Virus record (IMG/VR): IMGVR_UViG_3300031867_000039
Length of the DNA stretch: 64,000 bases
Source: an uncultured virus (IMG/VR IMGVR_UViG_3300031867_000039)
Lineage: Duplodnaviria > Heunggongvirae > Uroviricota > Caudoviricetes > Schitoviridae
Reading direction: 5' to 3' (one strand)
The position numbers were made by a program, and so were the translations under genes. Below are positions 5,944 through 45,400 of the stretch, piece by piece (positions within the stretch are counted from its first letter, which is position 1; every line of letters starts with the position of its first letter). Below the pieces are notes generated by a model. It saw only the letters and a list, made by a program, of their open reading frames with translations, ran no database searches and was not told the DNA's origin.

Positions 5944-7095
5944 ATGTACGGTAAATTAGTACATCGACCACCTTTTGGTCATTGTTGTCATGCTCCTAGA
6001 CCTCCTTTTGGAGATCCTAGAGAAGTAGGTGAACGTTACTTAGGCCATCCTGAGTTAACGGATTATTGGATTAAACCTTATTTATTGGAAGCACTTAAAC
6101 ATTATCCTAGATTGGATGATTCTTGTGTAGTAGAGGGTCTATGGACTTTTGCTAATAGTATTTTACTTAAAAACTATAAGGCTGCTAAAAGAATTCCACC
6201 TACATTTGATGATCCAGAAGTTACACATAAGATTGCTTTCTTGGATAGGGACGATGTTGAATTAGGTGCTATTAAGTTTTGGAGGAAAGTTGACTCTACT
6301 TTTGGTATTGATATTAAGCTGGGTAATGCTGGTATATCTATTATTGGGGATAATGATAATCCTTCAGTGTCATTAGTTAATACACCTGTTAATGATGGTC
6401 CTAAAGAAATTGTAAATGTAGAATACCTTAATCAGGCATTAGTTCCATTTAATGATGCATTAAACGCATTGGCTGATAGAGTAGAAGTTTTAGAAGATTT
6501 ATATGAAGATCAAATAAAACCTATTGTTACAGACCCAGATGGTAATACTAGAGTTGTACATACAACTATTCATGCTGATCCATCTGATGCTAATCTACCT
6601 ACATGTGGTGCTGTATATCAGTATGGTAAAGGTATCTCTGATGCATTAAATCAAAGAATTGATAATCTACCTCCAGTTGTAGATATTGTGCAAGATGGTA
6701 ATATGAATCCTGTAACAAGTAATGCTGTTGCAGATGCGTTAGCAGGTATTAACAATGCATTAAATGGTCTTAGTTCTAGAATTAGTTCTATTGAAAATGA
6801 TGTAGCTAATTTAAAGAATTCAGGTGGTGGTTCAGGCGGTGATTCTGGACCTACTATCCAAGCAGTATGGTACGATGGCTATCGAGACGGTCCTGGAACA
6901 TATTCATCTACAGTCGGTAATACCTATCCAGGTGTTGAACTTTATTCACCTGATGATGTTTCCCCTAATGGGACTCCTATTGGGGGAGCTGGAAATTATA
7001 TATGTGTAACTGCAAGTTCATACTCTGTTAATAGCATAGATAGTTCTGGTCCACATTTTGGTGGAATTACTGTAGGTACATTTAGGAAAATATAA
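5944..7095 (+). CDS. Tail fibre protein
   Basis: Two coiled-coil segments (NDALNALADRV, NNALNGLSSRI), NPVTSNAV fibre motif, GGGSGG linker and Gly/Ser-rich tip domain. Confidence 0.65.
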   Translation: MYGKLVHRPPFGHCCHAPRPPFGDPREVGERYLGHPELTDYWIKPYLLEALKHYPRLDDSCVVEGLWTFANSILLKNYKAAKRIPPTFDDPEVTHKIAFLDRDDVELGAIKFWRKVDSTFGIDIKLGNAGISIIGDNDNPSVSLVNTPVNDGPKEIVNVEYLNQALVPFNDALNALADRVEVLEDLYEDQIKPIVTDPDGNTRVVHTTIHADPSDANLPTCGAVYQYGKGISDALNQRIDNLPPVVDIVQDGNMNPVTSNAVADALAGINNALNGLSSRISSIENDVANLKNSGGGSGGDSGPTIQAVWYDGYRDGPGTYSSTVGNTYPGVELYSPDDVSPNGTPIGGAGNYICVTASSYSVNSIDSSGPHFGGITVGTFRKI

Positions 7096-7434: not shown

Positions 7435-8013
7435 ATGACTACTAAATATGTTGATGGTCCTGGTTTACGTTATTTTAGAGATACTTATTGTTTAACTGCA
7501 ACACAGATTAATACTCTTATTCAGGCTGCATTTTCACAGTATAAACAAGATATATTCACTGTAGTATCAGCTTTACCTCAATCAGGACAGCAAGAAGGTA
7601 TTATGTATTTAGTACCTACTAATGACCCAACTAAATTAGATGGCTATATCTGGGAAATTGTGGATGATACAACTACTCCCCCTACATACGGCTGGAAACA
7701 ACCAGTTATAGGACAGGCTCAAATAGACCTTAGTAATTATTATACCAAGACTGAAACTGATACACTTTTAGCAGGTAAAGCAAGTTCTACTCACGTACAT
7801 GGTAACATCACAAATGATGGTAAATTAGCTACTGCAAGTAGAGTTGTAATCACAGATTCGCAAGGAAGTATTAATACAAGTTCCGTATCTGATACTGAAT
7901 TGGGTTATTTAAGCGGTACAACCTCAAATGTTCAAACGCAGTTAAACAGTAAACATGACGATACTAATCATGTACCTTTAACTAATGCAGAAATTGATCA
8001 AATTATGGTGTAA
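7435..8013 (+). CDS. Tail fibre segment
   Basis: IDLSNYYTKTETD, HVHGNI and ELGYLSGTTSNVQTQL are common phage fibre repeats; AGGAG RBS. Confidence 0.65.
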   Translation: MTTKYVDGPGLRYFRDTYCLTATQINTLIQAAFSQYKQDIFTVVSALPQSGQQEGIMYLVPTNDPTKLDGYIWEIVDDTTTPPTYGWKQPVIGQAQIDLSNYYTKTETDTLLAGKASSTHVHGNITNDGKLATASRVVITDSQGSINTSSVSDTELGYLSGTTSNVQTQLNSKHDDTNHVPLTNAEIDQIMV

Positions 8014-8016
8014 GTT

Positions 8017-8247
8017 ATGGCGCAAACAAAATATACGGACGGTTCCGGTGTAGCTGAGATATGGGCTAATATTAAAAACTATGTAGCATCTCAGTTATTA
8101 AGTAAACAAGACACTTTAGTTAGTGGTTCAAACATCAAAACTGTTAATAATCAATCTTTGCTAGGGAGTGGAAATGTTAGTTTTACACCGCCTACGTTTA
8201 GTTATGATAGCAGTACAGAAACATTGGAGATTCAGATAAATGGCTAA
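8017..8247 (+). CDS. Small tail fibre segment
   Basis: KQDTLVSGSNIKTVNNQSLLGSGN fibre motif. Confidence 0.6.
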   Translation: MAQTKYTDGSGVAEIWANIKNYVASQLLSKQDTLVSGSNIKTVNNQSLLGSGNVSFTPPTFSYDSSTETLEIQING

Positions 8248-8875
8248 TATTTCACATTTTACACAAACGGTTAATGGCGTATCAACAACCTATGATATAC
8301 ATGATGCGGGTGCAGTTCAAAAATCTGAAGTTGGGGATATTATTACCCATAACGCAAGCGAGTTTGCGCAAGTTGGTCACACTCACAGTATGTCAGATAT
8401 TGCTGATGTGCCAAGTGTTTTACCCATTGGTTCTTATATTCAGTTTGCGGGTAGTCAAGCACCTGCTGGATTCTTAGTATGCAATGGCGGTGCAATTTCA
8501 AGGACCACTTACAGTGCATTATTTGCGGTTATAGGTACTAAGTATGGTGAAGGTGATGGTTCAACTACTTTTAATTTGCCTAATTTAACAGATAGATTTT
8601 TACAAGGTAACACGACAGTAGGGGCAGTGAGGAATGCAGGACTGCCGAATATTACAGGGAGTATATATATTGGTCACACGGACAGAGCACCGTCATCGTA
8701 CACTAATGGATGCATAACTGTTGCATCATCAACACAAGAAGGTTTCAGCAGGACAGCCGCCACAATTTCAGCAACCGGTCTTGGTATATATGCCTCCAAT
8801 TCAAATTCCATTTATGGTAGTTCCTCAACCGTTCAGCCACCCGCTTTAACTTGCTTAATCTGTATAAAATACTAA
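8240..8875 (+). CDS. Tail fibre tip protein with phage tail-collar domain
   Basis: PIGSYIQFAG..APAGFLVCNGGAISRTTYSALFAVIGT..GDGSTTFNLP collar motif; GLPNITG; C-terminal CIKY. Confidence 0.9.
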   Translation: MANISHFTQTVNGVSTTYDIHDAGAVQKSEVGDIITHNASEFAQVGHTHSMSDIADVPSVLPIGSYIQFAGSQAPAGFLVCNGGAISRTTYSALFAVIGTKYGEGDGSTTFNLPNLTDRFLQGNTTVGAVRNAGLPNITGSIYIGHTDRAPSSYTNGCITVASSTQEGFSRTAATISATGLGIYASNSNSIYGSSSTVQPPALTCLICIKY

Positions 8876-8884
8876 GGAGAGACT

Positions 8885-9505
8885 ATGAAATTCTATCTAT
8901 ATGACGAAAAGACAAAGCAATTCATTAAAGAACAAGAAGGGTATTTAGACCCTTTAGAAACCAAAGCTCAAGGTAAGAACGTTTACTTAGTACCTCCTTT
9001 TTCTACCACAGAAAAACCGGATCTTACAAGTTTGAAAGATAATGAAATTCTAGTTTTTAAGGGCGACAAGTGGCAGATAGAACAAGAATTTTATGTAGGC
9101 AAGATTGTAGATTGTCAGGGTGAACGTGTGAGCAAATACGTTACTGACAATGACCTCACCTTTGAAAAATGCGATGATGGTTTTAAGATTGTAGAAAAAC
9201 CTGCACCTAAAGAAAAAACTCTTGAAGAACTTGTAAGACAAAGAATTGATGAAATCAAAGTCGCTGTTCAGAATGTGCTAGATGCTAAAGCACAAGAGTT
9301 AGATTATGATGATGGCTTTACATTGGCAACTTATGCAACATCTACTAACGAAAGGTATAAGAATCAAGCAAATCAATTTATCGCATGGAGAGATAACGTG
9401 TGGGATAAATGTTATGAAATTTTAAATGCTTTTCAAAGTGGTGAAATTGAAATGCCTACTGTTGAATATGTATTAGAAAGATTACCTAATTTGGAATGGG
9501 AATAA
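8885..9505 (+). CDS. Tail fibre assembly/chaperone protein
   Basis: Follows the collar gene; YLDPLE..YLVPPFSTTEKP N-terminus and FIAWRDNVW C-terminus typical of fibre-assembly proteins. Confidence 0.7.
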   Translation: MKFYLYDEKTKQFIKEQEGYLDPLETKAQGKNVYLVPPFSTTEKPDLTSLKDNEILVFKGDKWQIEQEFYVGKIVDCQGERVSKYVTDNDLTFEKCDDGFKIVEKPAPKEKTLEELVRQRIDEIKVAVQNVLDAKAQELDYDDGFTLATYATSTNERYKNQANQFIAWRDNVWDKCYEILNAFQSGEIEMPTVEYVLERLPNLEWE

Positions 9506-9738: not shown

Positions 9739-10059
9739 TCATATTGTTAATGTAATATCATTAAAACCAAAAATACTTAGGTATGCTGAAATCTTTGCTA
9801 CTATCTCTTTAATAGGTGTTTTTAAATAATTTATTATTTCATCTTCATGATAAAATCTACATACAAAATCCAAATCTTCAAATATTTGTATTGTAGCTAT
9901 TACTGTACCTGTAGATAATGTTATACGTAATGCTATATAGTGGCTTTGAACTTGAATATTACTAAGTAGTTTATAATTTTTATATAATTCATACTGAGGT
10001 ATTTCATATAATTCATCAGGGATATTTTTAATTATTTGTTCTATATCATTAATATTCAA
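9739..10059 (-). CDS. Paralogue-array protein 14 (unknown function)
   Basis: KNIPDELY ... AYLSIFGF. Confidence 0.85.
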   Translation of the reverse strand: MNINDIEQIIKNIPDELYEIPQYELYKNYKLLSNIQVQSHYIALRITLSTGTVIATIQIFEDLDFVCRFYHEDEIINYLKTPIKEIVAKISAYLSIFGFNDITLTI

Positions 10060-10060
10060 T

Positions 10061-10339
10061 TTAAAATTGCCTTATATTTACTTTATATCCAAGTAACTCA
10101 AAATAATTAATTAGTTTATTAGCTATATCTTTAGACATATCATCTTTAAACCAATCTAATATAGTTATACTGGTTTCATTATTTGGTTCAATAGTAATTG
10201 CTACTTTTTCAGAAAACATTCGAGGGTATTTATACTTTAATAAAATACTGTTATCTACAATAATACCTTTAACAAATCCTGTATAATATTCATTAGCATA
10301 TATATTTTTAGCATTATTTATTAATTCTAATATATCCAT
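10061..10339 (-). CDS. Paralogue-array protein 13
   Basis: LINNAKNIY ... NYFELLGY; start taken at MDILEL, just after the stop of the upstream gene. Confidence 0.8.
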   Translation of the reverse strand: MDILELINNAKNIYANEYYTGFVKGIIVDNSILLKYKYPRMFSEKVAITIEPNNETSITILDWFKDDMSKDIANKLINYFELLGYKVNIRQF

Positions 10340-10340
10340 A

Positions 10341-10613
10341 TTAAACCCATTTCTTGATATGAAATCCAAGTAAACTAAAGTATTCTTGTAATTGCTTTGT
10401 TATATTAAAAGCCCAATTATCAATTACAAGGGGTACTACATTAACATTATTAGTACCTTCCCAAAAGTTAATCTCTATTATATTTACATAATTAAAATCA
10501 TCATATCTTAAAAAATATGAGTACTTACCAAACCATTTATGTTCTGTAATATCTAAGAATCTATCATTAGAATAGATATCTTTAGCATTCTCAATCAGTT
10601 GTAAGTAACTCAT
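10341..10613 (-). CDS. Paralogue-array protein 12
   Basis: LIENAKDIY ... EYFSLLGF; close sister of 10061-10339. Confidence 0.85.
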   Translation of the reverse strand: MSYLQLIENAKDIYSNDRFLDITEHKWFGKYSYFLRYDDFNYVNIIEINFWEGTNNVNVVPLVIDNWAFNITKQLQEYFSLLGFHIKKWV

Positions 10614-10622
10614 ATTTATATC

Positions 10623-10979
10623 CTATTTATTTAAAATACTAATAATGCTTTGTTTATCTTCATCAGACATTACATCAATCTTCTGTCTTAATAATTTAAC
10701 TAGCTTGTTATTAACAGGTACATTACCAGTATGAACTACTTGGAATTCTTCTGATATACCATTACGACCCATAAACTGCTTTAAATAACCTATATCTAAG
10801 TCATATACTTTAGCTAGTTTATTAATTATAGGTTCACTTAATTCTCTTTTACCTGCTTCTATGTTGGATAAATGACAGCTAGATATTCCTATAGCTTTTG
10901 CCATATCTTTCTGTCTAATTAAATGATCTACACGATATTTACGAATATATACACCAAATTCTGTTAATTGCATTTTCAT
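10623..10979 (-). CDS. XRE-family helix-turn-helix DNA-binding protein
   Basis: FGVYIRKYR..QKDMAKAIGISSCHLSNIEAGKR. Confidence 0.9.
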   Translation of the reverse strand: MKMQLTEFGVYIRKYRVDHLIRQKDMAKAIGISSCHLSNIEAGKRELSEPIINKLAKVYDLDIGYLKQFMGRNGISEEFQVVHTGNVPVNNKLVKLLRQKIDVMSDEDKQSIISILNK

Positions 10980-10990
10980 CTTTTTACGTC

Positions 10991-11305
10991 CTATAAATAA
11001 AAATCTCTTTTTAAACCAAATACTGAGAAATAAGCTATCATTTTCTCTCCTATCTTACTGTATATAGCTGGTAGCTCTTGTCTTGGTTTATGTATTACAT
11101 GAACCAGATTAAAAGTATCCTCTCTCCAATCTACAATACAATCTATATCTATGTTTTGGTTATTACCCTTATACATAAATTTTTTACGTAGTTCTCGTAA
11201 AGATCGTATTTCATAACTTTCAATTTTAGTTGGGGATATACCATCTAATGTATAAATATCTTCTGGCATATTCTCTAATATCTTAATTGCTTCCTCTTTA
11301 GTCAT
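10991..11305 (-). CDS. Paralogue-array protein 11
   Basis: ENMPEDIY ... AYFSVFGL. Confidence 0.85.
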   Translation of the reverse strand: MTKEEAIKILENMPEDIYTLDGISPTKIESYEIRSLRELRKKFMYKGNNQNIDIDCIVDWREDTFNLVHVIHKPRQELPAIYSKIGEKMIAYFSVFGLKRDFYL

Positions 11306-11307
11306 AG

Positions 11308-11616
11308 TTAAGGTCCTATATATGTAAATCCCATTAGTATAAGATAATGTTTATATATACTAAGTGCTTCTGTTACTTTGCAATTAATATAAGCACTACG
11401 ATGTCCATTATCAAAATAAGTATATTGCATAGTTAAGAACTTATCATTATGTTGGATTAATATATCAGCTACAGCCATTTTATTGATAAATAGGTTAATC
11501 TCAGCCCATATATCTCTACCATCTCTTTTAACTTGTAATGATGTAGTTATACTAAAACCATCAAAATAAACCTTTGGTAGATTTTTATAAACCTTTCTAA
11601 TTTCTTTTTCTGTCAT
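11308..11616 (-). CDS. Paralogue-array protein 10
   Basis: KNLPKVYF ... HYLILMGF. Confidence 0.85.
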   Translation of the reverse strand: MTEKEIRKVYKNLPKVYFDGFSITTSLQVKRDGRDIWAEINLFINKMAVADILIQHNDKFLTMQYTYFDNGHRSAYINCKVTEALSIYKHYLILMGFTYIGP

Positions 11617-11918
11617 GATGTTTGTGTCCTTACTTCTACTAAACCAAATAAATTGAAATAGGCTGATATCTTTTTATGGATATTATTAAAGATTTTACAA
11701 CCATCATCATTTATATTGGTTAAAAAGGAATAAATTAAATATGCATTATTAGATGCAAATAGGGAAAAGGTAAATATCTTAGAATGTTTATACCATACAT
11801 TCAAAGTAACTGAATCTATCCTATCCGTATACATATCTGTATACATTTGCACATAACTATCCTTTAATAGTTCTTTAGGTATGTCTTCAACTATACCTAT
11901 TAATTCATTTATTCCCAT
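11613..11918 (-). CDS. Paralogue-array protein 9
   Basis: EDIPKELL ... AYFNLFGL. Confidence 0.85.
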   Translation of the reverse strand: MGINELIGIVEDIPKELLKDSYVQMYTDMYTDRIDSVTLNVWYKHSKIFTFSLFASNNAYLIYSFLTNINDDGCKIFNNIHKKISAYFNLFGLVEVRTQTS

Positions 11919-12282
11919 CTAATGTTATCCACCGTAAAAACATATTGCTATTACCTAAATTTACATTTTCTTTTAGACCTATTAACTTTAAATAGGTTGT
12001 ACATTTATCTTGGATATCTTGTATATCTATAACCTTAATATTTTCTGGTAATCTATTTGCAAATGACACTATATGTACTGTAAATGTTTTATCTGGATAA
12101 GCCTCAATACATAACAATGGTGGTAATCCATTATCAGTTTTAAAACCTACCATTAAACAATAACCACTATAGTATTTGCTCAATGATCTAGCACTATATG
12201 TAATTTCATCATTACTAAATACATCTTCAGGTATGCTATATAAGATTTTCCTAATCTCTTTCATTTTATTAAAATTTGCCAT
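11905..12282 (-). CDS. Paralogue-array protein 8
   Basis: YSIPEDVF ... TYLKLIGL; ATG at 12282 preceded by GAGGGA. Confidence 0.85.
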   Translation of the reverse strand: MANFNKMKEIRKILYSIPEDVFSNDEITYSARSLSKYYSGYCLMVGFKTDNGLPPLLCIEAYPDKTFTVHIVSFANRLPENIKVIDIQDIQDKCTTYLKLIGLKENVNLGNSNMFLRWITLDGNK

Positions 12283-12457
12283 ATTCCCTCTATACAATCT
12301 ATAAGTGTTGGTTTATAATATACACATATTAAGAATTTGGTACGTAACAGATTATTAATATCACGTATAGGTAACAACAGTAATATTTAATTGTGGCGGT
12401 ATAAATATTACTTAGTAATTACGCTATACACCCTCACTTCGATATAGCCAAACGCTT

Positions 12458-12476
12458 ACCCCCGCAAGGGGGTTTT
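12458..12476 (+). terminator. Plus-strand intrinsic terminator-like hairpin inside a minus-strand cluster
   Basis: accccc-gcaa-gggggt followed by T run; GNRA loop. Confidence 0.55.
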
Positions 12477-12826
12477 CATTTATAGAAATCATCCTCTAAA
12501 TTAAAACCTGTTATTTTAAGGTAGCTACATATTCTATTAACTGTATCTTGTATTATCTTAGGTAAGGAACTTATTAATCCACCTGATAAAGTACTATTTT
12601 TTATATAGAAGAAATCATCTGTATATACACGTACACTAAATGCATCATGTTCTTTAAAAAGAACATCTACTATATACGTAGACATATCAGTACCACCATC
12701 AAATTGTAAACCAACTTTTATACCACTTAGATTATCTTCAAAATATACTTTTAATAGGTTATATAATATTGCTGGATCATTTGATAATGACTTTAAAACA
12801 AATACCTTTAATTCATTCTCTGTCAT
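12476..12826 (-). CDS. Paralogue-array protein 7
   Basis: MTENEL start; SYLKITGF C-terminal motif. Confidence 0.8.
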   Translation of the reverse strand: MTENELKVFVLKSLSNDPAILYNLLKVYFEDNLSGIKVGLQFDGGTDMSTYIVDVLFKEHDAFSVRVYTDDFFYIKNSTLSGGLISSLPKIIQDTVNRICSYLKITGFNLEDDFYK

Positions 12827-13143
12827 AATTCTTTAAATCCCATTAATGTTAGATAAGTTGCAATCCTCTTTTTAACTAGTTCATAACACTTTATATGAAG
12901 TTTAGTTTCACTACCTATCTGACTAATTACACAATTAAATGTACCATTTACCAGTAATTCTATACAAATAGTAGCATTCTTATATAACCCAGATAATGAT
13001 TCATACCTAATTATAAATACAATACTATCACTATGTTCTTGTAAGTAAGGTATACCATTAAACCTTATATTTCTATGGCATAACTTAGTAAAAGGTATAT
13101 TCTCTTTTATTTGTTTTAATTCATTTATGCTATATTTCATCAT
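12823..13143 (-). CDS. Paralogue-array protein 6
   Basis: ENIPFTKL ... TYLTLMGF. Confidence 0.85.
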   Translation of the reverse strand: MMKYSINELKQIKENIPFTKLCHRNIRFNGIPYLQEHSDSIVFIIRYESLSGLYKNATICIELLVNGTFNCVISQIGSETKLHIKCYELVKKRIATYLTLMGFKEL

Positions 13144-13465
13144 CTGTGTATAGCCCCATTAATTTTAAATAGTTAATTAATTTATAACATATATCTTGCA
13201 AGAACCCTGCAGGACAATCTTTTGGTTCATGCATAGTACCTTGATATCTTACTTTAATAGCAAAGTACCATGAATTACCCTTTGTATGAGTTATATGTAC
13301 ATATATATTATTTAAATCATACATAGGATGATAGTGATACTCTACTACTTGAGAAGCATATCCGTAATTCATAAAATAAATGTTATTTGGTTCAATATCA
13401 TTTAGTGAGTATATTTCTTTTGGTATGTTTCTTAGTATTTCCATTCGTGGATCTAAGTAGTGCAT
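13130..13465 (-). CDS. Paralogue-array protein 5
   Basis: RNIPKEIY ... NYLKLMGL; start placed at MHYLD (uncertain). Confidence 0.8.
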   Translation of the reverse strand: MHYLDPRMEILRNIPKEIYSLNDIEPNNIYFMNYGYASQVVEYHYHPMYDLNNIYVHITHTKGNSWYFAIKVRYQGTMHEPKDCPAGFLQDICYKLINYLKLMGLYTDDEI

Positions 13466-13823
13466 CTTTAATTGCCCCTGACATCTTTTGTAATAAGCCA
13501 GCATCAGTAAACTCCAAATCTTTTATATGAAACGATGGAATCGTTGAAGACTGTTCATACATAGTAGCTCTCTTTTCCTTTAATCCGAGTAAATCCATAT
13601 AAGCTCGTAGTCTATCAGCTAATAGCTTTATTTCATTATTTATATAGTCTGAATAAATAGTATATCTATATTCATCACCATATAGCTTTATAGCTACTAC
13701 ACACTCTCCTTGGTACATAAACCATATTGAATCTTGGTTTGGATCATACTTTAATTTAATTGGATAATTAGGAATATTATATATATCAGTAGGCATACTT
13801 TTTAATAAATCTTTAGTTCTCAT
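13398..13823 (-). CDS. Paralogue-array protein 4 with C-terminal extension
   Basis: KSMPTDIY ... AYMDLLGL followed by ~55 extra aa. Confidence 0.8.
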   Translation of the reverse strand: MRTKDLLKSMPTDIYNIPNYPIKLKYDPNQDSIWFMYQGECVVAIKLYGDEYRYTIYSDYINNEIKLLADRLRAYMDLLGLKEKRATMYEQSSTIPSFHIKDLEFTDAGLLQKMSGAIKDALLRSTNGNTKKHTKRNILTK

Positions 13824-13832
13824 ATAACACCT

Positions 13833-14153
13833 TTAACATTTTAAATATTTAATTCCCATCATAGTAAAATATACACCTAACTTCTTATAGAACTTATATT
13901 CCTTACCAACTAAGTCATCTGCTAAATCTAAAGATATACTATTTAATGCATCTGCATTTTGAACTGTTTTATAACAAGCATAATAAAAATGAAATGCAGC
14001 TTTTTGACTAAGTAAATCCGCTGAATAACATTTAAAGTCTCTAGTATTATTAGTTTTATTTATTCTTACTTTTAATTGTTCACCCTCAAATACTAATAGT
14101 TCTTTAGGTATATTAAGCATTAAAGATTTAAATTCTTTGAATGAGAGACTCAT
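13833..14153 (-). CDS. Paralogue-array protein 3
   Basis: LNIPKELL ... VYFTMMGI. Confidence 0.85.
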   Translation of the reverse strand: MSLSFKEFKSLMLNIPKELLVFEGEQLKVRINKTNNTRDFKCYSADLLSQKAAFHFYYACYKTVQNADALNSISLDLADDLVGKEYKFYKKLGVYFTMMGIKYLKC

Positions 14154-14442
14154 AGGTATACCCCATTAAATTAAGCCAAGTATCTAGTTTCTTTAATTTA
14201 TCAGGTAAATGATATGATACCCACATACCTTCAACAAATTGAACACTATATTTACCATCTTTAATAATTAATTTTAAATAAGTAGCTGCGAACATAGTTG
14301 CTGAGTAATATGCAAAAATCTCTATTTGAGGTATATAACTTTTATCTACTATAGCAAGTCTTCTTAATTTTTTATTATGTAATTTAAAGTATCTTACAGG
14401 TATATTTAAATCTTTTAATCTAACTACATTCTGTTTTATCAT
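14128..14442 (-). CDS. Paralogue-array protein 2
   Basis: LNIPVRYF ... TWLNLMGY. Confidence 0.85.
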   Translation of the reverse strand: MIKQNVVRLKDLNIPVRYFKLHNKKLRRLAIVDKSYIPQIEIFAYYSATMFAATYLKLIIKDGKYSVQFVEGMWVSYHLPDKLKKLDTWLNLMGYTYESLIQRI

Positions 14443-14762
14443 TTTTTCTTTTTCCTGCCTAATCCAAACATATCCAAAAAGGTAGTTAATCTATCCCTCA
14501 TTTCTGGATCTCCTTGGATAATAAACTTATTAGTATTGAATTTAACTATTAAAAGTAACGTATCACACTCGTAATCATTACGTAATATATACTTAACTTC
14601 TATAGCTTGTGGATCATTTTCTGAAATGTATGTAGTATATGTACATGATGTATATTTACTATTATCAGTAAATAATTCAGTAGGTATATTATCAATAAGT
14701 CTACATGCATTATAGAATTTACTGTTAAAAGTTAAATTAGAACCTTTTAACATCATTCTCAT
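14439..14762 (-). CDS. Paralogue-array protein 1
   Basis: DNIPTELF ... TFLDMFGL. Confidence 0.85.
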   Translation of the reverse strand: MRMMLKGSNLTFNSKFYNACRLIDNIPTELFTDNSKYTSCTYTTYISENDPQAIEVKYILRNDYECDTLLLIVKFNTNKFIIQGDPEMRDRLTTFLDMFGLGRKKKK

Positions 14763-15112
14763 AATTCAGTAATCCCTAATTTAAATTTATCATTTAAGTA
14801 CTTAGCTAATAAATGTCTATGACAGAAGTTACCTGGTTTTTCCCAACATAATAAAACTACATCTTTATCTAAACCTTGTAACCCTTTAACTATTGGTTCT
14901 AAATTCCTAGAGTCTAATAAAGCTATATATTTCTTATAATATTCAGCCTCATCAATCTTTCTGGTTTTATATTCATTAAGTAATTCCCATGTTGGCATAA
15001 ATTCACGTATCTGATAATCTACAGTAAATCTTGCCGGAATACTTAATGAAATACTCATCTTAATAAAATTATTAAAACCCTTACCATTTGCGTAATAACT
15101 TGTATAAATCAT
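14759..15112 (-). CDS. DUF488-like protein
   Basis: MIYTSYY start with GAGGT RBS; LLCWEKPGNFCHRHLLA motif. Confidence 0.75.
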   Translation of the reverse strand: MIYTSYYANGKGFNNFIKMSISLSIPARFTVDYQIREFMPTWELLNEYKTRKIDEAEYYKKYIALLDSRNLEPIVKGLQGLDKDVVLLCWEKPGNFCHRHLLAKYLNDKFKLGITEL

Positions 15113-15159
15113 ATTTACCTCGTTGAATAAAAAATCATATGAGTGCTGAAAGCACAAAT

Positions 15160-15183
15160 AAAAAACCCTGTATAGAACAGGGT
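15160..15183 (-). terminator. Intrinsic terminator
   Basis: Minus strand accctgt-tctat-acagggt followed by T run. Confidence 0.8.
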
Positions 15184-15197
15184 AGAAAAAGAAATAG

Positions 15198-15395
15198 TTA
15201 ATTACTTTTACGTAGATATAGCGTTAATGCAATAGTACATAAGTCTACTATATTTTGGTCTTTTGGTTTAGTTATGAATTGAAAACCACGATCCATTAGA
15301 TTCTGCATTAACACTTCATTTGATATATCTTTTGGATATAAGAATGTAGTATTTTCTTTAATATGTTTTAATAGTTCATCTAGCTTATCTTCCAT
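15198..15395 (-). CDS. Hypothetical protein
   Basis: MEDKL start with GGAG RBS, overlapping the upstream gene end. Confidence 0.7.
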   Translation of the reverse strand: MEDKLDELLKHIKENTTFLYPKDISNEVLMQNLMDRGFQFITKPKDQNIVDLCTIALTLYLRKSN

Positions 15396-15630
15396 TATAT
15401 AATCTCCATGCATGTAGACAAGCTACTGAAAGATGGTATAGATTCTCTTCCCATTCTTTCATATTCTTAGCATTAGCTAATTCTTCATATTCCATTTTAA
15501 TAATGGCATTAGCACCATCAATATTATTAGGATATTTATTCCATGTACTTGGTTTATGTTCATCTACTTCGTGACACTTGTGCATGAATTCAATATCCTC
15601 TGGTTCATCTCTCTTAGTAATAATTAACAT
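15385..15630 (-). CDS. Hypothetical protein
   Basis: MLIITK start with GGAG RBS just after the terminator. Confidence 0.7.
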   Translation of the reverse strand: MLIITKRDEPEDIEFMHKCHEVDEHKPSTWNKYPNNIDGANAIIKMEYEELANAKNMKEWEENLYHLSVACLHAWRLYNGR

Positions 15631-15641
15631 AAGATACTCCG

Positions 15642-15664
15642 AAAAAGGGTTCCGAAGAACCCTT
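15642..15664 (-). terminator. Intrinsic terminator with cUUCGg loop
   Basis: Minus strand aagggttc-ttcg-gaaccctt followed by ttt. Confidence 0.85.
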
Positions 15665-15691
15665 AAAACACGAGGAAATACACATGACAAG

Positions 15692-16559: not shown

Positions 16560-16808
16560 TTATTTTAATGTTTCTTTCTTTGTCTCCAATTTTTCTATTT
16601 CTTCTTTAAGATTTTCTAAACGATCTCTAACAGATCTAATTTGATAGTCATAATCAGATATCCTATCCCTTAAATTCTCTTTTTCATTACTTAACAACAT
16701 TATATAGAGTCTAAAGAAAATAGCTGCAATTATAGCTACAATAATTACTGCTGCTAAAATCCAAGTCATTATTATGATATATTCAGGAATTAAGGATGCC
16801 ATCTTCAT
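16560..16808 (-). CDS. Membrane-anchored coiled-coil hypothetical protein
   Basis: One hydrophobic segment followed by a heptad-rich region. Confidence 0.7.
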   Translation of the reverse strand: MKMASLIPEYIIIMTWILAAVIIVAIIAAIFFRLYIMLLSNEKENLRDRISDYDYQIRSVRDRLENLKEEIEKLETKKETLK

Positions 16809-17022
16809 CTATCTCCTTTTGTTCTTCTATTAACAATACTTCCATAGTAGTCTTCTTGGTTTTAGAGTCATGCCATTCATGTAGATATACATCTTCTATA
16901 TTATGCTGTTCATTACATTTATAGAATGTCTCAAACTCTAACTTAACAGTTAAATTACCACCATCTACATCTGGTAGATTTTTAATCTTTTGTAGTTCGC
17001 TTATTAATTCGTTTACTGTCAT
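16783..17022 (-). CDS. Hypothetical protein (MTVxELIxxL phage family)
   Basis: MTVNELISELQK start with GGGAG RBS. Confidence 0.7.
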   Translation of the reverse strand: MTVNELISELQKIKNLPDVDGGNLTVKLEFETFYKCNEQHNIEDVYLHEWHDSKTKKTTMEVLLIEEQKEIDEDGILNS

Positions 17023-17230
17023 TGGTTCTCCCCTTTTTCTCATCTTTTACAATTTGAAGCAATATAGATAAATAGTAATGATATCTCTTCCAAGTAGATG
17101 CCTCTAAAGCAAATTGACTTACCCTTCCTATATCTATCTTAAATTCAAGTTTATCTATATCATCTTTAAGTTGTTCTATGAGTATATCTAAATCCTTATT
17201 ACTCATCTTTTGAAGGTTATGCATCTTCAT
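16982..17230 (-). CDS. Hypothetical protein
   Basis: Coupled ORF in the minus-strand operon. Confidence 0.6.
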   Translation of the reverse strand: MKMHNLQKMSNKDLDILIEQLKDDIDKLEFKIDIGRVSQFALEASTWKRYHYYLSILLQIVKDEKKGRTNDSKRINKRTTKD

Positions 17231-17508
17231 TTCTCTTTTCTTTTATTGGATTTCTCAATTAACTTCTGTTGCCACGGTTCAAATTCATTAATATGACCAC
17301 TAATTAACTGTTTCCTATATTCTTTTGCATAGAATATACATCTTTCCCATTGATACTTATACATCTTTAATTTATGTAGGGTTTCTGGTTTTACCTTATC
17401 ATTTAGCATCTTGGTTTCAAGATGTAATAACTTACGCCTAAATGCATCAATATCATTTGATACTCTATTAATAATTACTTTAACATCTTCTGCCATTAGA
17501 ATTCCCAC
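17227..17508 (-). CDS. Hypothetical protein
   Basis: Coupled ORF in the minus-strand operon. Confidence 0.65.
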   Translation of the reverse strand: MGILMAEDVKVIINRVSNDIDAFRRKLLHLETKMLNDKVKPETLHKLKMYKYQWERCIFYAKEYRKQLISGHINEFEPWQQKLIEKSNKRKEK

Positions 17509-17828
17509 CCATTTAAATGTAAATACTCAATAAATCTATTTCTAGCTTTTTTACTTACTGTAGAAGTAGATCCATATAAAGCATGATACATTATACGTGA
17601 CCATTTATCATTACTTGAATGTAACCATATACTTATAGTAACAGGTGTTATAAACCCTGTTTTTTTATTTCTATACTCAAAAAAGATAACTAAAGTATTA
17701 CCATAATTTTCTTTTTCCCAACCACTATAATACCTTAGATGAATTACTTCTTGTGTTCTTGTGTCAAATATCTGTTTAAATAATTCTAAATTACAGATAC
17801 TAGATAAATCTCTTATTGTTGCTTTCAT
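17496..17828 (-). CDS. Outlying member of the paralogue family (probable)
   Basis: 110 aa, GAGG RBS, ends EYLHLNGWEF matching the Y-L-x-L-x-G motif. Confidence 0.65.
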   Translation of the reverse strand: MKATIRDLSSICNLELFKQIFDTRTQEVIHLRYYSGWEKENYGNTLVIFFEYRNKKTGFITPVTISIWLHSSNDKWSRIMYHALYGSTSTVSKKARNRFIEYLHLNGWEF

Positions 17829-36426: not shown

Positions 36427-39400
36427 ATGACTGATAACTATGATCAAAGTGCTGTAACTCAAGTTCCTGCAGAAGTATCTAGCAATGGTGAACAAGATAT
36501 TCTAAATAAATTTAGAAGTTATGATGAATTAAAAGCTACTGTCCATGATTTACCTTTTAGTGAATTTGCTGGAAGGTATGCTCCAAATAATTATGAAGCA
36601 GCTAGTCGTATTTATGGTCAAGTATCAAGACAGCTTTATGAGCAGTCAAGGTTTAACGAATCTATTTATGATAAACGTATTGAACCACAAGATCCTGATA
36701 CTTATGCACACTTTGATACTAATACTTTATCAGGTAAAGTACTTGATGCTGTCTTTGGTGATACTTCTAAAGAGAGCATGAATAATAGCTTTATTAAATC
36801 ATTACTTGTTAGTAATGCTATTAACAGTACTGCTAGTGTATCTAATGCTTATCATGACTTTATTAATATGTTTGGTGCTAATTCGGGTAGGTATAATACT
36901 ACTCCTGAAGAAGAACAAGAGAGACAGAAAACTAGACAGTTAATTGAAGATACTGCTAAACGTATGCCTTATGGTGTTAGTCCTGAAACCAAGAATGCTA
37001 TGGTTGAAATTAAAGTTAAGCAAGATAAGGTTAAAGCACTAGAAGATGAGTTATCTAAGGAAACAGATCCAAAGAGACAGAAAGAATTAGAAGCAGAGAT
37101 TAATGCTCTTAGATTATCTCCTGAAGAAATGGAACTTACTAAAGATCCAGTATTTAAACAGGTTAATCAGTTAGAAGAATCTATTAATCTATATAATAGA
37201 TTATCTTCCTTATCACAGGCTGATAGTGATTTCTGGGGATTAAATCAGTTTAAGTATAATAATGCTATAGAGAAACCAGAATCATTAAAAGACCATATCT
37301 TTAAAATTAATAAGATGTTAGCTGATACTTCTGGTTTATTGGCTGAATCAGCTTTAGTTGGTGGTGCTATAGGTAAAGGTGCATCTTTAGTTAGGGGTGC
37401 TTTATCAAGAGGTCTTGGATTAGGTTCTAAATCTATTTTTGCAGGTGAAAATGCAGCATCATTATCTGGTTTTAAATTATTTGATCCAAAAACATGGTCA
37501 CCGGCTACTTTAGCTATTAGACGTGGTAATAAAGTAATTCCTGCAGTACTTAAAGGTGTTAAAGAACTAGGTGTTAGTACTGCTGCTGTATTACCTTTAT
37601 CCTTAGAAGAAGCTGCAGAAAATAGAGTAGATACTATTAACAACTTACTCAATAATGGTTTAGCTCCTGGATTATCTACAGGTGAAGAAAGATGGATGTT
37701 GGCTGCTGCATTAATTAATGATGTAGGTACAGCTATGTTACCTAAAATGCCTGTATTACCTAAAGCATTACGTGGTTCTGCTACTGAAGTAGCTGCATCA
37801 AGAATATATAATAATATTAAAACTAAATGGCCTGATATATCTGCACAAGCATTTGAAAAAGCATTTAAATCAGGTACATCCCTTACTAAATCTGTTAGAG
37901 CTGCAATAGCTGCAGAGTCTATGAAAGTATTAGCTGAAGCAGGTAAAGATGGTATTACTAAATCAGGTGCTAAAGCTATTGGTAATTTCATAGGTAATCT
38001 GACCCAAGATAGTATTGCCCTTGGTTTAACTACATTTGTACAGCAGGCTATTAAAGACTTTGCATCTGCAGGTTATTTACGTTCAGGTGACTTTGTAGAG
38101 AACTGGGTAGATTATCTTAGTGGTGGTGATTATAGACGTAACCTACAAGAGTCTTTTGAAGCTGGTTTAATGGCTATTCCTTTAGCTGCTCCTAGTGCTT
38201 CAGGTAGATTTAAGAAAGATATTGATAACTTATCCAAGTATTCTACTGAATTAAAGAAACAAGCTTATTTAAATGCTAATCTATGGTCTAGTGATGAAAC
38301 TGTAGAATATGATAAGATCCAAGATATTCTTAATAAGCCAAGAGTAGATCAAGAAACTTATAGTAATAACATTAAAGAAATCAGTGAAGCTGTATCTAAT
38401 AACGATATAGATTCTATTGTTAATAAAACAGGATTATCAAGAGAATTTGTATCTACAGTGTTGGAAACATCAACACCAAAAGATGCTATTGTTGGCTTTA
38501 CTGATTTCTTAGGTGTTACTGATACTAAAGCCAAGAAGTTAGAAGAACATCAAGCAGAATTAATTAACCAAGCTAAAGAAAAGAGAGATACAGATAGTAT
38601 CCTTGGTAAAGGTGTACGTACTGATTCTTCATATACTGTAAATAATGCTAAGAGATTATTTAAAGATATTACTAAACTTGGTTCAATGTCTAATAATAAA
38701 GCTGCTTTAGGTGAATTGATCCAAACATACCAACAGGTACAGAATGGTACTATGGGGGCTAAAGAGATTGGTTCTGTATTACAGAAATATGCTCATTTAC
38801 CTGAAGTACGTGTATTGGATTCTATGTTACGTAGAACTTCTAATCTAGCTTTTAAAGATGCAGATATTGTAGCTAATTTAGATAGACTAGCTAATAAGTA
38901 TTTAAAGACTCCTACTAGAGATAACACCAAACTTAAAGATAGTCCTATGGATTTAATATTTGGTGTAGATACTGGTAAAGCTGATAAATTCTGGGAATTC
39001 GCTGCATCAGGTAAATTATCTCCAGAAGACTTACTTAAAATGGATGCAGCTGATGAAGCTGAAGAACAACGTTTAGAATCTATTAAAAACCAAACTAATG
39101 GTGCAGAGATTACCTCTAAACAAGAACTTATTAAAGCTCGTAGAAAAGCTTATAAGAAACTCATTAAATGGAATAATGATATTAATGCTGTATCCAATAA
39201 CCTCTCAGAAGTTTTAAAACCAGCTAAAGAATATGCACAAAAGAATAATATCCCATTAAGTGAATTAGGTACTGTAATTGATAAATTCTTTAATAATGCA
39301 AAAGATGAAAAGAAGAAAGGCTTATTCAATCATTTAACAGATATCTTCAGATATTACACTAATAATGATGTAGGTAATTTATTACAGTCATTACATCAGT

Positions 39401-42400
39401 TAGGTACTTTTATTAATTCACAATCACCTGAAGTAAAAGGTGTTAATTATAATGGTAAATTAGTAGATAGGATTGCTGCTGAACATGAATTAATGAAAAT
39501 AGTAACCAAACAGTTCTTAGAAACTAATGGTTTAATTAAGGATATTGAAGCTAGTGCTAAAGTAAATAACATTACTGGTCCTATTATCTTAGCTGAATTA
39601 GAGCATATTAAAGGACTGTATGAAGGTGTTAATACTACTTATGATCAGTTTATAAAGGATAATGCTGCTTTAGTATCTACTTTTACTACTGCTGCTACTT
39701 CTAATTCTACTAATAACGCTGAAGAGCGTAGTAATACAGAATCTAGTGATTCTAATAATGTTGCAGATGATGTAGAAATTAATTTAGGTGAACAGAATAA
39801 AGAACAAGAACAGGAACAAGCATCTGCTCAATCTGAACCAAAAGTACAAGTTGCAGATGATAAAGAAGAAACTATTGAGGATATAGTAAATAATGCTGAA
39901 TCTGAACCAACATCGCAACAGCAAGGACAAGAAGTACAGAATGTAGAACAACCTGTTGCACAAGAACAGGCTCCAGAACTTATAGAAGATGCTAATAATC
40001 CTTTAAGTGATTCTACTACTGCTGCAGTTAATGCTGCTATTACTATTAACTCATCTACACAGAATTTTGATAATGTAGTTGCAAATAATAATACTAGTGC
40101 TGATAGAGGTGTTAATACACAACAGCAAAGAACTAATGGAAATACTAATAGAAATAACCAAGAGTTATATACTGAATTTTCAAACCATTATTTTAAAGAA
40201 GAACCTGCTTTATTAAGACCTAGTAGAAATGATCCAAATAAACGTGAAATCCCTAATACTGTAACTAACCTTATATCTGGTTTATCAAAAACTGGATTAA
40301 GGGTTAATTTTGTACCAGTAAGTGAAGATATTGCTAAAAGTAATGATGAATTCTATATTTTTAAACGTAATCCTCAAAGTGATGGTAGTGAACAACTTAG
40401 TGTTAATTGGATTGGTTTAAGTAAACTTGTTCCATTTAACTTAATTAAATATACAGCAGATTATATAGCTAAAAAACCTGCTGATGAAATTATTAAGGTT
40501 GCTCTTCCTGTTGGTATTGATGCTATTGGATATAATGATAATAATGGCAAACATATTGTAAATTTTAGAATTCGTGAAACAACATTTGAAATACAATCAC
40601 CGCAAGACTACTATAATGCAAAATACTATTTATTAAATTTCTTACAATATGTTTATCCTAATATCTCAAAAAGTAGATTTGTTAATATTGGTGATATAAG
40701 ACCTGCTGTATTAAATGCAGTTAATGCTATGCATACTGATGCTAAAGAAGCATTTATTAAAATTGTACAAAAATCTAAAAGTAGTAAAAAGAAAGCACCT
40801 ACAAAAAACCCACTATTTCAGGTAAAAGCTAGTTCTTTTGGTTCAACATTAGGGAAACTGTTTGAAAATAAAGAACCACAAATAGTTACAAATCTTACTT
40901 TAGATAAGATTGTTAATGATGGTTCTAAATTTGCTGGTTTCTTAGATTTAACTAGACCTGTTGATAAAACTGATACTGACCCTAATAGTATTATAAAAAG
41001 AACTGATTTAGGACCATTAATCAGTTTTGCTGAAAAAAACAATATGATCGGTAATTCATTTGCTAATATATATGCAGCATATATGCAGGCTACTGGTCAT
41101 GGAAATGATATAGATGCAAGTATCCTGAGCAGTAAGGACTATAACAGTAAATTACAAGTACAAGTAGCAGCAAGAAATGAATTAGCTGCTATACCATATT
41201 TAATTGCTCATAACTACTTCCCTACTAGTCAAATAAAAGTTAAAGATACTAATACATACAGTAGTATTTGGGAACATCCAGAAGATAAATTAGATAAATG
41301 GCAATCTAGGTTTAAGAAATTATTTGACCCATTTGTATGGGTTCATACACATGAGGGTGCAAAATTATTTAAAGAATCATTACCTTCTGGTGTTGTAGTA
41401 GATGATTTTGCAACAACTGTTAATAACCTTACTGCATTTACTTATGGTCAGGTAACTCAAGCTTATGCTAATTCTGTACAGCATACTATACAACCTAATC
41501 AGAATGTGCAGCAAAAGGTTAATACTGTTAATAATACTGTTACTCCTACTCCTACTACTAACAATAGTAATAATACTGATGTACAAGATACACCAGTAGT
41601 AGAACAACCTACAGTAAATAATACGCAAGAGCATAATTTAACTAATTCAACTACTGATTTGGTTAATGCTACTTATTCCCTTAATCAGCAAAATATTCCA
41701 AAAGTGGTAACAGAGTTAACTACAAATAAACCAAAAAAAGAACTTAAAGAATATCAAGATGCTGTTGATAGTAATGTAGCTATTGATCAACGTGAATCAC
41801 AAGATCCAACACAGGCTAATGAACCTCAAGCTATTAGTGATGCTGATATGGCTGATGATGGTACTACTATACCTAGTGCAGAAGAAAATACAGAAATGCA
41901 AACACCAGAGTCTGTATCATTAGGTAGAGTAGCTTTAGATAAACTTATCTTACCTCCATCTGCAAATGCAACATCAGAAGATTGTGTTAATGGTTTACTT
42001 GATGACACTGAATTAGGCAAAACTAATAAAGCTGTAGGCACATTACAGGAACTTTATAATAAGTCAGAAGATAAAAGCCAAATCAAAGATGTACTAAAGA
42101 GGGGTAGAGAAGGTTTTATTAAAATAAGACAAATCTTAGCTAATAGTGATAAAGAAACTAAAAATATAGTTAAAGGAAATACTGTTAGGATTAAAAATCC
42201 AGAGGTATTACTTACTACAAATGATATTGTTAATATAGCATACGATGTTAGAGGTGTTCCAGCAGAAAACCGTGAATTTGTAAGTAAAAACCAATATTTA
42301 AGTAGTATTTTATTTAAGGATATTGACTCTGAAGATAAAGATGCAAAATCAGCCATAATTAATGAATTTGCTAGCAGACTTAGATTAAGGAATGTTAATA

Positions 42401-45400
42401 ATGCTGAGATTACTGATAATGATGTTTACAAAAAATTAAGTGAACTTAAATTTAGAGTATCTTTAAAACCATCTAAGGAACTTTCACAGAATTTTGCAAA
42501 TACCTTAGATTTAACAGAAGATTCATTTTTACTTAATTATTTAGGTACTGATGGTGAAGTAGATGATAATAAAGTTAATAGTTTCTTTAATAATATTGAA
42601 AACCAACTTACTACATATATCTTTACTAATTTAGCAAATGAAGGTTCTTCTGTAGATATTGGTACTCTAATGCGTTATTCAGGATTACCTGCTGAGAAAT
42701 CTAATGCAGAACATATGAGTGCTATTCTCAAGAAATATGGACCTGAATTATTAAGTGCATTAAAAGATGGTGGACTTGTTGGACCTATTTCTGCATTTAG
42801 TAGAAAATTAGGTAAGTACTTATATAGTTCTTTGGATAAAAGTGCATTCCCTAAAGACTTTAAACTAAATGAAACTGAATTAGAATTATTTAAAATGTAT
42901 CTTGGTAGTTTAGGTACTAAGATACTTACAGATTCTGGTTTATTAATTAAAGCAGATGATATACAAAATGCTGATAATCTTTATAAGGTTAATGTATCTA
43001 AAAAAAATGCTAATGGTGTTAGATATAATTCTGCAGTAGTAAATGGTAAGATTCAGAAAGTACAGGTTGATCCAACAGAATTAGATAAAGTAAAAGAGTT
43101 TAATAAACTTGATAAAAAGCATGTATTTACTAAATACATACTTGGTAATGCTTATGCAGAAAAGCATGTATCCTATGATGGTTCATATAAAGTACCTAAG
43201 TATACAGAACACGGTATGGAAATACCTAGAAGTATGCGTAATGCTTTAAATAAATACATGCAAACTGGTTATGCTATAGATAAGAGTATTGTTGGTTACT
43301 TTACTAGAGATTTAAATTCTCTTTTATATTTAGAAGGCGATAATACATTAAAGTATAATAATAAAGAATTAACTGTTAGAGATTTCTTTACATTATGGTT
43401 ATCTGATTATTCAACTGATGAAGCATTCCAAGATTTTGCACATAAAGCTATGAATGAGTGCAAAATACTGAAACGATTAAATGTATTTTTAAATATCAAA
43501 GATCCAAGAAATTACTTTGAGACTACTGGATTCTCTGTTGTAGCTCATAACAGATCAGTAATTAAAGAGTTACTTGGATTAAATGATAGTATTGATGCTT
43601 GGAATTCTAATAAAGCTAAAATACAGGAAGAGATTGATGCATTAACTGATGAAACTAAAAAGAAATATAAAAATCAGTATTTATTAGCACATCATGAAGA
43701 AATACTATCAGATGATAGTAATTATTCTTTTGCTTGGTTCCCAATTAATCCAGGTGTTAACTATCGTGCTTTCCAGAATGGTATTGAAATTAATCCAGTA
43801 GCAAGTAAAGAATTTACTAGATATTTAATGTATCGTTCTCCTAATGTGTTAGAGTCTGGATTTATTAAGAATGATAAGGTTAATGGTGGTACAGCTCAAC
43901 ATATTATTGCTTATTCTATTCTTCAGAACTTTGACCAAAAACCAGAGAAGAAGATTGCTCCAAAGGATTTCCAGAAGAAAGCTCAAGAACTTCTTAAAAA
44001 GATAGAATGTCCAGCTTTAAAAGAGATTATTTTAGACTATCAAAAGAATGGTTCTTTTACCTTTACAAATGGTGATTTATGGGCTGATTTGCTTAAACAT
44101 ATTGAAGATCAAAAGCTTGAATTAGAACATACTATACAAATCTTTAATATTGTTAAAACCATAGCACAATTTGCTGATGACAAAGGAAATATCCAGTATG
44201 GTGAACATACTCTATTTGTTATTAATGATAAAAAGATAACTAACTATGTATTAGCTGAAACTGATGGTATCACTAATGGTGCTGCTATTGGTTTAGTTAC
44301 TACCCTTGGTTTATTAGACCCAACTATGACTGAAGCTGTTAATGAGCTAATAACTAAAGCAGATTGGGAAAACTTAAATCGTATTGGTATATTCAAAAAA
44401 GGTTCTACTATAGAGAGTGTTAATCAGTTCTATTTTAATGAAGATGGATCTAAGAAAAAGAATGCTCGTGATATGTATGAGAACCTTATTGATAAGTTTA
44501 AACTAAATGGTATTACTTCTAATAATGGTAGACCACTTATTCATGGATACGATTGCAATAACTTACTTAGATTAGTATTTATTACTAAATATGGTGTATT
44601 TGATAAAGACTTTAAAGCTAAATATAAGCAAGTCTACTTTGATGCTAAAAAGGGTATTATAGATAAGTATCCAGATATTACAAATGAGCAGTTAAAGGAA
44701 TTTAATACATATATCCTAACAGGTGAAAATATTACTTTAGATGATAAAACTTTTAGACATATATATGAAAGTATATTTAAGAGTGTATTAGAACGTAATG
44801 ATACTAAGTATCCATTTATGACCTTTAACTATGCAGCAGGTGTAGATGCTATTACTAAAGACCTATTAATGAATAGATTAATACCTGTAGCATTAGAACA
44901 TTTAGCTGAAGCATTAAAGAATAGTCAAGATACAGAACATACTCTTGCAAAGTTTATTGAAGATACTCTTGAATATTGTACGGATAATAAAACATTAACT
45001 ATACATGAAGATATTGCTGATACTTTACTTGATCCAAGCAATAGAAATTCTAATGAAAAGTTTAATGAGTTTAAGGAAAAGCTTAAAAAAGCTAATTTAT
45101 ATTTTAACAAGGAAGAGCTTAAAACTTTTAGACAGTATGCTAATACACAGTTCCTTAATGAACAGGCAAGAGAAGATACTAAAAAGTATTTAACGCTATC
45201 CTTTAAGAATAAACGCTATATAGGTATATATAATGAATTTAATAAAATTAGAAATAATTCTATTAAAAATGGTGTAATTAATATTACCCCTGATAAAGTA
45301 AGTGCTAAACTCATTGATGATTTACTGCATCTAATGGTTCCTGGATTTACTGCTATAATGGGTCAACCATTATTTGATACTATGATGAATGAATTCCCTC

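Follow-up and report, generated by a model that had tools for sequence, protein, structure and literature searches.

New anti-defence and host-takeover proteins come mainly from the accessory regions of phages, and most of them have been found singly. Where anti-defence genes form operons, as in those of anti-CRISPRs with Aca-type regulators, the operon often holds a helix-turn-helix (HTH) regulator, and known operons hold unrelated genes rather than 14 paralogues. In a bacterial genome, strings of non-identical immunity genes (esaG) stand beside polymorphic toxin loci of type VII secretion (T7SS), as described in PMC9484751. We describe a tandem array in a window of 64,000 nucleotides (the whole stretch of DNA analysed) from an uncultured virus, IMG/VR record IMGVR_UViG_3300031867_000039. 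The array occupies 9739-14762 on the minus strand and consists of 15 packed open reading frames (ORFs), namely 14 copies of one family (90-141 aa as called) and one HTH gene. One small scaffold is thus present in 7 to 15 diverged copies per genome in three phage lineages, with a confidently predicted fold and no known relatives; it is a new orphan family in an unusually large array. Our preferred reading, to which we give a probability of about 40%, is that these small proteins act inside the cell as a repertoire of binders of varied host targets, used in phage-host conflict.

The array resembles Aca-type operons in that an HTH gene stands within an operon of small genes and that the spacer preceding the HTH-bearing block contains inverted repeats. 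However, the HTH gene is absent from the arrays of two related viral contigs (L005, 28 kb, and L006, 67 kb), and no copy matches a known anti-defence family. The likeness to the esaG strings lies in the many diverged tandem paralogues, the conserved segments, and gain and loss between close relatives. On the other hand, the array has no toxin partner, no sequence or fold match and no long identical tracts of the kind left by recent recombination, and it lies in a lytic-type phage genome, whereas the esaG strings lie in a bacterial genome.

Judged by sequence profiles, the copies form one real homologous family, with 13 copies clear and copy 5 marginal. A C-terminal motif, [YWF][LFM]xxxG[FLYI], is present in all 14 copies, compared with 5 of the 174 other window ORFs (at least 40 aa) and 727 of 20,000 shuffled sequences. 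An N-terminal motif, [NSD][IML]Px[ED][LIV][YFL], was found in 8 of the 14 copies, in none of the 174 other ORFs and in 18 of 20,000 shuffles, and both motifs never occurred together in the same shuffled sequence (0 of 20,000). Pairwise phmmer connects only 6 of the 14 copies. When jackhmmer was seeded with the ORF at 10991-11305, it gathered 12 of the 14 copies and neither any of 700 shuffled decoys nor any other window ORF. With leave-one-out hidden Markov models (HMMs), 13 of the 14 copies ranked first of 875 non-training sequences, at E values from 1e-9 to 6.5e-3. For copy 5 (11308-11616), a larger profile from which the copy and its orthologue were left out gave 11.1 bits, a score reached by 3 of 1000 shuffles, and we regard it as a probable member. 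The highest-scoring window ORF outside the array was that at 17496-17828 (E 0.006, 11.5 bits, 0 of 1000 shuffles), which ends in a variant of the C-terminal motif and has 31 database proteins as orthologues, at 77-97% identity; it is probably a 15th family copy. The ORF at 16783-17043 was also considered and was rejected as a member (1.6 bits, with 234 of 1000 shuffles as high).

The array copies and the probable additional copy are as follows, in order of transcription.

17496..17828, minus strand: probable 15th copy, 2.7 kb upstream of the array, with unrelated genes between.
14439..14762, minus strand: copy 14, first of the array in transcription order; its start overlaps the stop of a DUF488 gene by 4 nt; leave-one-out E 1.8e-4, rank 1.
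14128..14442, minus strand: copy 13; leave-one-out E 2.3e-3, rank 1; 16.2 bits, 0 of 1000 shuffles.
13833..14153, minus strand: copy 12; leave-one-out E 6.5e-3, rank 1; 14.8 bits, 0 of 1000 shuffles.
13398..13823, minus strand: copy 11; leave-one-out E 2.9e-5; a C-terminal tail of about 55 aa overlaps the next gene.
13130..13465, minus strand: copy 10; E 5.5e-8; start at ATG 13465 backed by the L002 orthologue, the longest ORF reaching 13504.
12823..13143, minus strand: copy 9; leave-one-out E 3e-7.
12476..12826, minus strand: copy 8, last of the upstream block; leave-one-out E 3.7e-3, rank 1.
11905..12282, minus strand: copy 7; E 9.5e-9; start at ATG 12282, matching the orthologues; the C-terminal tail is conserved.
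11613..11918, minus strand: copy 6; leave-one-out E 5.5e-7.
11308..11616, minus strand: copy 5, marginal by sequence; leave-one-out rank 14 of 875; C-terminal motif present.
10991..11305, minus strand: copy 4, the modelled copy; leave-one-out E 3e-9.
10623..10979, minus strand: XRE/HTH_3 gene, not of the family; Pfam E 7.6e-11.
10341..10613, minus strand: copy 3; leave-one-out E 6.5e-4.
10061..10339, minus strand: copy 2; E 2.8e-3, rank 1; start at ATG 10339 as in the L003 orthologue, the longest ORF reaching 10369.
9739..10059, minus strand: copy 1, last in the array; leave-one-out E 1e-9.

A first-pass annotation, made from the letters and translations of the window, had described 14 consecutive minus-strand ORFs in two blocks of seven separated by a spacer of 180-190 bp, all with the C-terminal motif and most with the N-terminal one, as one scaffold expanded by duplication and belonging to no named family. 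The number of copies, the two blocks of seven and both motifs agree with our results, the motifs exceed their background frequency, and the profile searches bear out the common origin; the copies are not strictly consecutive, as the HTH gene lies among them. The spacer is 178 bp long (12298-12475), or 193 bp if copy 7 starts at ATG 12282, with seven copies upstream of it and seven copies plus the HTH gene downstream. The same annotation had called the middles of the proteins beta-strand-like and barely alignable, which fits the mean column identity of 20% over the 14 copies and the strands of the model described below. Over 50 family members the mean column identity is 14%, and one glycine is invariant in both alignments. 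Identity to the first copy is 14-26%, indels fall between strands in both alignments, and the isoelectric point (pI) ranges from 4.4 to 9.8 over 36 members. At the nucleotide level, the copies share only repeats of 18-53 nt at about 65-86% identity, and we saw no sign of recent gene conversion between them, namely no long repeats or identical tracts.

Two copies carry extra C-terminal sequence. The tail of copy 11 (window 13398-13560) covers the first 68-107 nt of copy 10 in a different frame and is kept in the orthologue P0117. The tail of copy 7 (11905-11960) ends in W-I-T-L, as does that of the L005 member at 8010-8402 (tail at L005 8340-8402), and at the level of sequence this tail marks a subfamily with an added element.

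The structure of copy 4 was predicted with AlphaFold2 from a 39-sequence family alignment, giving a predicted local distance difference test score (pLDDT) of 86.2 and a predicted template modelling score (pTM) of 0.79. The model has a helix at residues 3-11, strands at 27-33, 38-46, 51-59 and 64-71, and a second helix at 80-95. The ORF at 17496-17828 was modelled from 14 of its 31 own orthologues, with no family sequences in the alignment (pLDDT 80.4), and has helices at 5-11 and 14-21, four strands, and a helix at 93-105, in the same order as in copy 4. Among 48,161 PDB representatives, 19 of the top 50 neighbours were common to the two models, supporting both one fold and the assignment of a 15th copy. 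A shared fold, as expected for the common scaffold of the first-pass annotation, is predicted in both models made. Each of these models is a compact domain of helix, four strands and helix, in which the conserved ends correspond to the N- and C-terminal helices; the invariant glycine stands just after the C-terminal helix. The models and their secondary-structure read-outs suggest that the terminal helices pack on the sheet as the core of the fold, with the motif residues buried.

No search connected the family with a described one. Scans of the copies with Pfam, PHROGs, NCBIfam and PADLOC gave no family; for PHROG, none of the 14 copies had a match at E ≤ 0.01. When 50 members were each scanned alone against Pfam at E values up to 10, no family recurred, none being matched by more than 2 members, and no immunity family (SUKH/SMI1-KNR4 or others) appeared. 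The Pfam model of Tad2 matched neither the copies nor the 50 members. A profile search of PDB sequences reached a best E of 0.33. Foldseek returned nothing at E ≤ 0.001 from PDB and BFVD, and the ESM Atlas gave no usable match. Among the nearest known folds were the KA1 (kinase-associated 1) domain, Crl and the N-terminal domain of Aha1, with Foldseek E values never at or below 0.001. No SUKH or SMI1-KNR4 structure was recognised among the fold matches listed, an absence that does not exclude that fold. Longer, fused forms were absent from 7998 scored candidates, which is weak evidence, and no description of the family was found in the literature at the level of titles and abstracts. A relationship with gp70 or gp71 of phage N4 was rejected, as hhalign with the 50-sequence family alignment gave a probability of 0.2% for each; these genes lie beyond gp68/gp69 in N4, whereas the array lies between tail-fibre genes and a lysis/portal module. 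As a kind of feature the two are alike, since gp70/gp71 also form tandem sets of small, rapidly diverging, uncharacterised paralogues at the right genome end of N4 and its relatives, although the present array has two to three times as many copies.

Relatives are few. A full HMM scan of 1.84 billion representative proteins gave only 20 matches at E ≤ 0.001, and a word-indexed search gave 111 matches; BLASTP assigns all proteins from both searches to a window copy, at 26-100% identity. Neither blastn with the array nor tblastn with two copies found anything in 50,697 phage records, and copy 1 and P0126 as queries found nothing in viral contigs. A conserved neighbour gene led to the distant contigs L011 and L012, in the covered parts of which there were no family members. 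Apart from four close relatives of the window (L001-L004), family arrays were found in two further N4-like viral contigs, L005 with 15 members (12 in tandem and 3 scattered) and L006 with 7 and a possible, weak eighth. Copy number, whose variation the first-pass annotation had suggested examining, is 14-15, 15 and 7 in the three phages. L006 shows identities to the window of 42% for the primase, 42% for Sak4 and 61% for the terminase. Its array follows the primase, Sak4, SSB and RusA genes on the same strand and converges on tail-fibre and terminase genes, a gene order which suggests that the minus-strand block of the window belongs with replication-side (pre-late) genes.

Turnover is much faster in the array than in the genes around it. 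Flanking genes show 37-93% identity between the window and L005, and BLASTP (E < 1e-5) finds counterparts for only 2 of the 14 array copies, at 27% and 42%; the latter value is that of copy 2. In a maximum-likelihood tree of 35 members from the three phages, the copies of different phages interleave, with 12 changes of the window label compared with 11.1 for shuffled labels, as in an old family with old duplications. Few groups across phages are well supported, namely 10061 with L005 11186, and 13130 with L005 9977 and L006 10001. Changes between close relatives are also uneven. In L001, copy 3 has 77% identity and its two neighbours, the HTH gene and copy 2, have 98% and 96%; in L002, copy 4 has 83% identity and its neighbours 95-100%. 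The HTH gene has 98-100% identity in L001 and L002. Of the 21 differences between copy 3 and its L001 orthologue, 18 lie within residues 36-73, and those of copy 4 from L002 are likewise in mid-protein, so that the pattern of conserved ends and a variable middle, which had been noted among the paralogues, is also seen between orthologues. The ratio of nonsynonymous to synonymous rates (dN/dS) was 0.04-0.68 in 11 of 12 pairs of window copy and relative, indicating purifying selection and genuine genes. Copy 1 is absent from L001 and L004, in which unrelated ORFs (215 aa and 694 aa) stand in place of the adjacent tail genes; both copy 1 and these tail genes (window 8240-9505) are retained in L003. 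The end of the array and the tail-fibre cassette seem to be swapped jointly.

Homology, the predicted fold, the arrays in three phage lineages, a turnover faster than that of the flanks and purifying selection on most copies were all computed directly; from here on, we infer binding, targets, expression timing and a role in conflict. The reading of the copies as intracellular binders draws on the fast turnover, the site next to a host-range module, the DUF488 gene that matches candidate components in PADLOC, and the embedded HTH gene. The spread of pI, the indels between strands and the mid-protein differences of orthologues fit a common scaffold whose surface has diversified and which is kept in many copies. 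The array is read as an old multigene family of small soluble proteins in the accessory part of the phage genome. Each copy would be a compact domain with an antiparallel sheet of four strands between an N-terminal and a C-terminal helix, and these two conserved helices would probably pack against one sheet face as the core. Helix capping may be the role of the conserved N-I-P and of the invariant glycine that follows Y-L-x-L-x, and variation would be left to the strands, the loops and the opposite face. Each copy could then have its own host protein as a target, in most cases probably a component of a defence system or another host factor. The proteins would be made before or alongside replication functions, and copies would be gained, lost and diversified as hosts change. 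A more specific form of this proposal, in which the variable sheet face and loops provide 14-15 specificities per genome, each neutralising a different host defence or factor, so that array content sets host range from inside the cell as the adjacent tail fibres do from outside, seems doubtful to us. It would make the family a new anti-defence superfamily with a built-in library architecture.

Several points weigh against the binder repertoire. None of the Pfam, PHROG, PADLOC and fold scans found homology to any known anti-defence protein. Only two of 15 proteins were folded, one of them with a family alignment, and expression timing is read only from synteny with L006. The tree is near saturation, with a median terminal branch of 1.96 and only 5 of 32 inner branches well supported. 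Most copies are under plain purifying selection between close relatives. The dN/dS of 1.17 for copy 3 against L001 comes from a single pair with about 20 changes, and as a sign of rapid change it is only suggestive.

Other explanations account for part of these observations. It is unlikely, in our view, that the array is largely dispensable, that is, made of duplicated orphan genes persisting with little function. The missing known domain, the narrow distribution in the protein database and the loss of copies in relatives would fit such an array; however, the dN/dS values given above, the intact reading frames in many metagenome contigs and the maintenance of arrays in three lineages whose copies share less than 45% identity argue against it. 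Immunity-type proteins that neutralise toxins of abortive-infection systems, toxin-antitoxin systems or competitors would be a special case of intracellular binders. Strings of diverged tandem paralogues are typical of such genes, for example T7SS esaG (PMC9484751), and the fast turnover matches as well. However, Pfam and PHROG scans show no toxin gene nearby in the window, the 50 members include no Pfam immunity family and there is no structural match, making this case distinctly unlikely. The nearest folds, KA1 and the KA1-like domains of TUT1 and METTL16 (which bind U6 RNA), raise the idea that the copies are binders of nucleic acid or lipid with a part in processes of the phage itself. KA1 domains bind acidic phospholipids through a basic surface, and the wide range of pI across members makes a shared basic patch of this type unlikely; we consider the idea improbable.

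The remaining two explanations concern assembly. The first-pass annotation had offered, beside a panel of binders, subunits of a hetero-oligomer docking via the shared terminal helices. The same terminal motifs on all copies, together with translational coupling in two operon-like blocks that favours co-expression, would suit hetero-oligomer subunits, or homo-oligomers, assembled in this way. Docking through these helices is not supported as it was put forward, since both models show the conserved ends as the two helices of one compact domain; that they are kept because they make up the core would be the simpler reading of the models. An obligate complex should keep its set of parts, so the variable copy sets of the three phages (14-15, 15 and 7, with few one-to-one orthologues) weaken this explanation and fit an obligate hetero-oligomer poorly. 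Copy 1 is moreover lacking in close relatives, and we rate oligomers of either kind as very improbable. Accessory factors, such as chaperones or adaptors, of the neighbouring tail-fibre/host-range module are hardly to be expected either. In the window, L005 and L006, the array and the tail-fibre genes meet at their 3' ends, and the loss of copy 1 coincides with the swap of adjacent tail genes in L001 and L004. However, fibre chaperones usually lie directly downstream of the fibre gene on the same strand, whereas here the array and the tail genes are on opposite strands, the L006 array is co-directional with replication-type genes, and 14 chaperones for a few fibres are implausible.

If the copies do have different host targets, the binder repertoire would be a ready-made natural set of inhibitors, and binder engineering would gain a compact scaffold from it. 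The widening of intracellular host range by phages could also be studied on this example. If instead the array is dispensable, it shows that orphan duplications can persist for long in lytic phages.

The elements that surround and divide the array are as follows.

15165..15183, minus strand: terminator-like hairpin and T-run, just upstream of the DUF488 gene.
14759..15157, minus strand: DUF488-N3a gene, heading the transcription unit that includes the upstream block.
12458..12473, minus strand: GC-rich hairpin directly after the copy 8 stop, without a minus-strand T-run.
12283..12475, minus strand: inter-block spacer with two inverted repeats, a candidate promoter or operator.

The genes of the array are tightly coupled, with Shine-Dalgarno (SD)-like sequences and several 4-nt overlaps of start and stop. 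In many cases the C-terminal motif has its glycine codon 10-20 nt ahead of the following start, where it provides an SD-like G-run or purine run, so that conservation of the motif may partly be at the nucleotide or RNA level. The HTH gene follows copy 4 after 11 nt and precedes copy 3 by 9 nt. One inverted repeat of the spacer spans 12326-12361 (18-nt arms, 83% complementarity) and the other pairs 12379-12389 with 12402-12412 (perfect 11-nt arms, 12 nt apart). The HTH protein of the downstream block may use both as operators. The spacer was also considered as a structured RNA, which was rejected, as its fold z-score of -1.58 is not notable and Rfam gave no match. In PADLOC, the DUF488 gene matches PDC-M45C (E 2.2e-14) and PDC-M19A, both candidate defence components. 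It is translationally coupled to copy 14 and more likely starts at an internal ATG 15 codons in.

The window is most of the genome of a low-GC (about 26-36%) uncultured N4-like phage. PHROG matches include the large terminase, the portal (phrog_1216, E 2.6e-213), the major head protein, primase, DNA polymerase, a Sak4-like protein and SSB. Compared with isolated phages, the major head protein reaches at most 48% identity, the top matches being Erwinia, Vibrio and Acinetobacter phages, which we take to be N4-like. Related metagenome contigs are up to 72-74 kb long compared with about 64 kb for the window, so part of the phage genome is probably outside it. The array belongs to a minus-strand block of 10.3 kb (20071 to 9739), the first gene of which encodes a RusA-like resolvase. 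This block meets the plus-strand tail-fibre genes, which stop at 9505, tail to tail; on the other side of the array are RusA and the lysis and portal genes. The junction with the tail-fibre module is the site of the array in all three phages. The window has no tRNAs and no Rfam match, and sigma-70-like promoters are not in excess (57 found, 80 expected).

Three further observations concern other genes of the window. The virion RNA polymerase ORF (36427-51048, plus strand) encodes 4873 aa, compared with about 3500 aa in N4, and matches phrog_2206 (E 1.4e-110) mainly at residues 3679-4822, its first approximately 3600 residues being largely unexplained. The DNA polymerase (56888-60558, minus strand) is seemingly split, as 58549-60558 corresponds to positions 519-1036 of phrog_17 and 56888-57610 to positions 1057-1250, with ORFs without assignment, for example 58046-58558, between the two parts. 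A small overlapping gene pair at 15198-15690 on the minus strand (71 aa and 101 aa, phrog_9157) has 64-91% identity in L005 and L006. In L006 this pair (6309-6696) is on the opposite strand relative to the array, indicating a rearrangement around the array.

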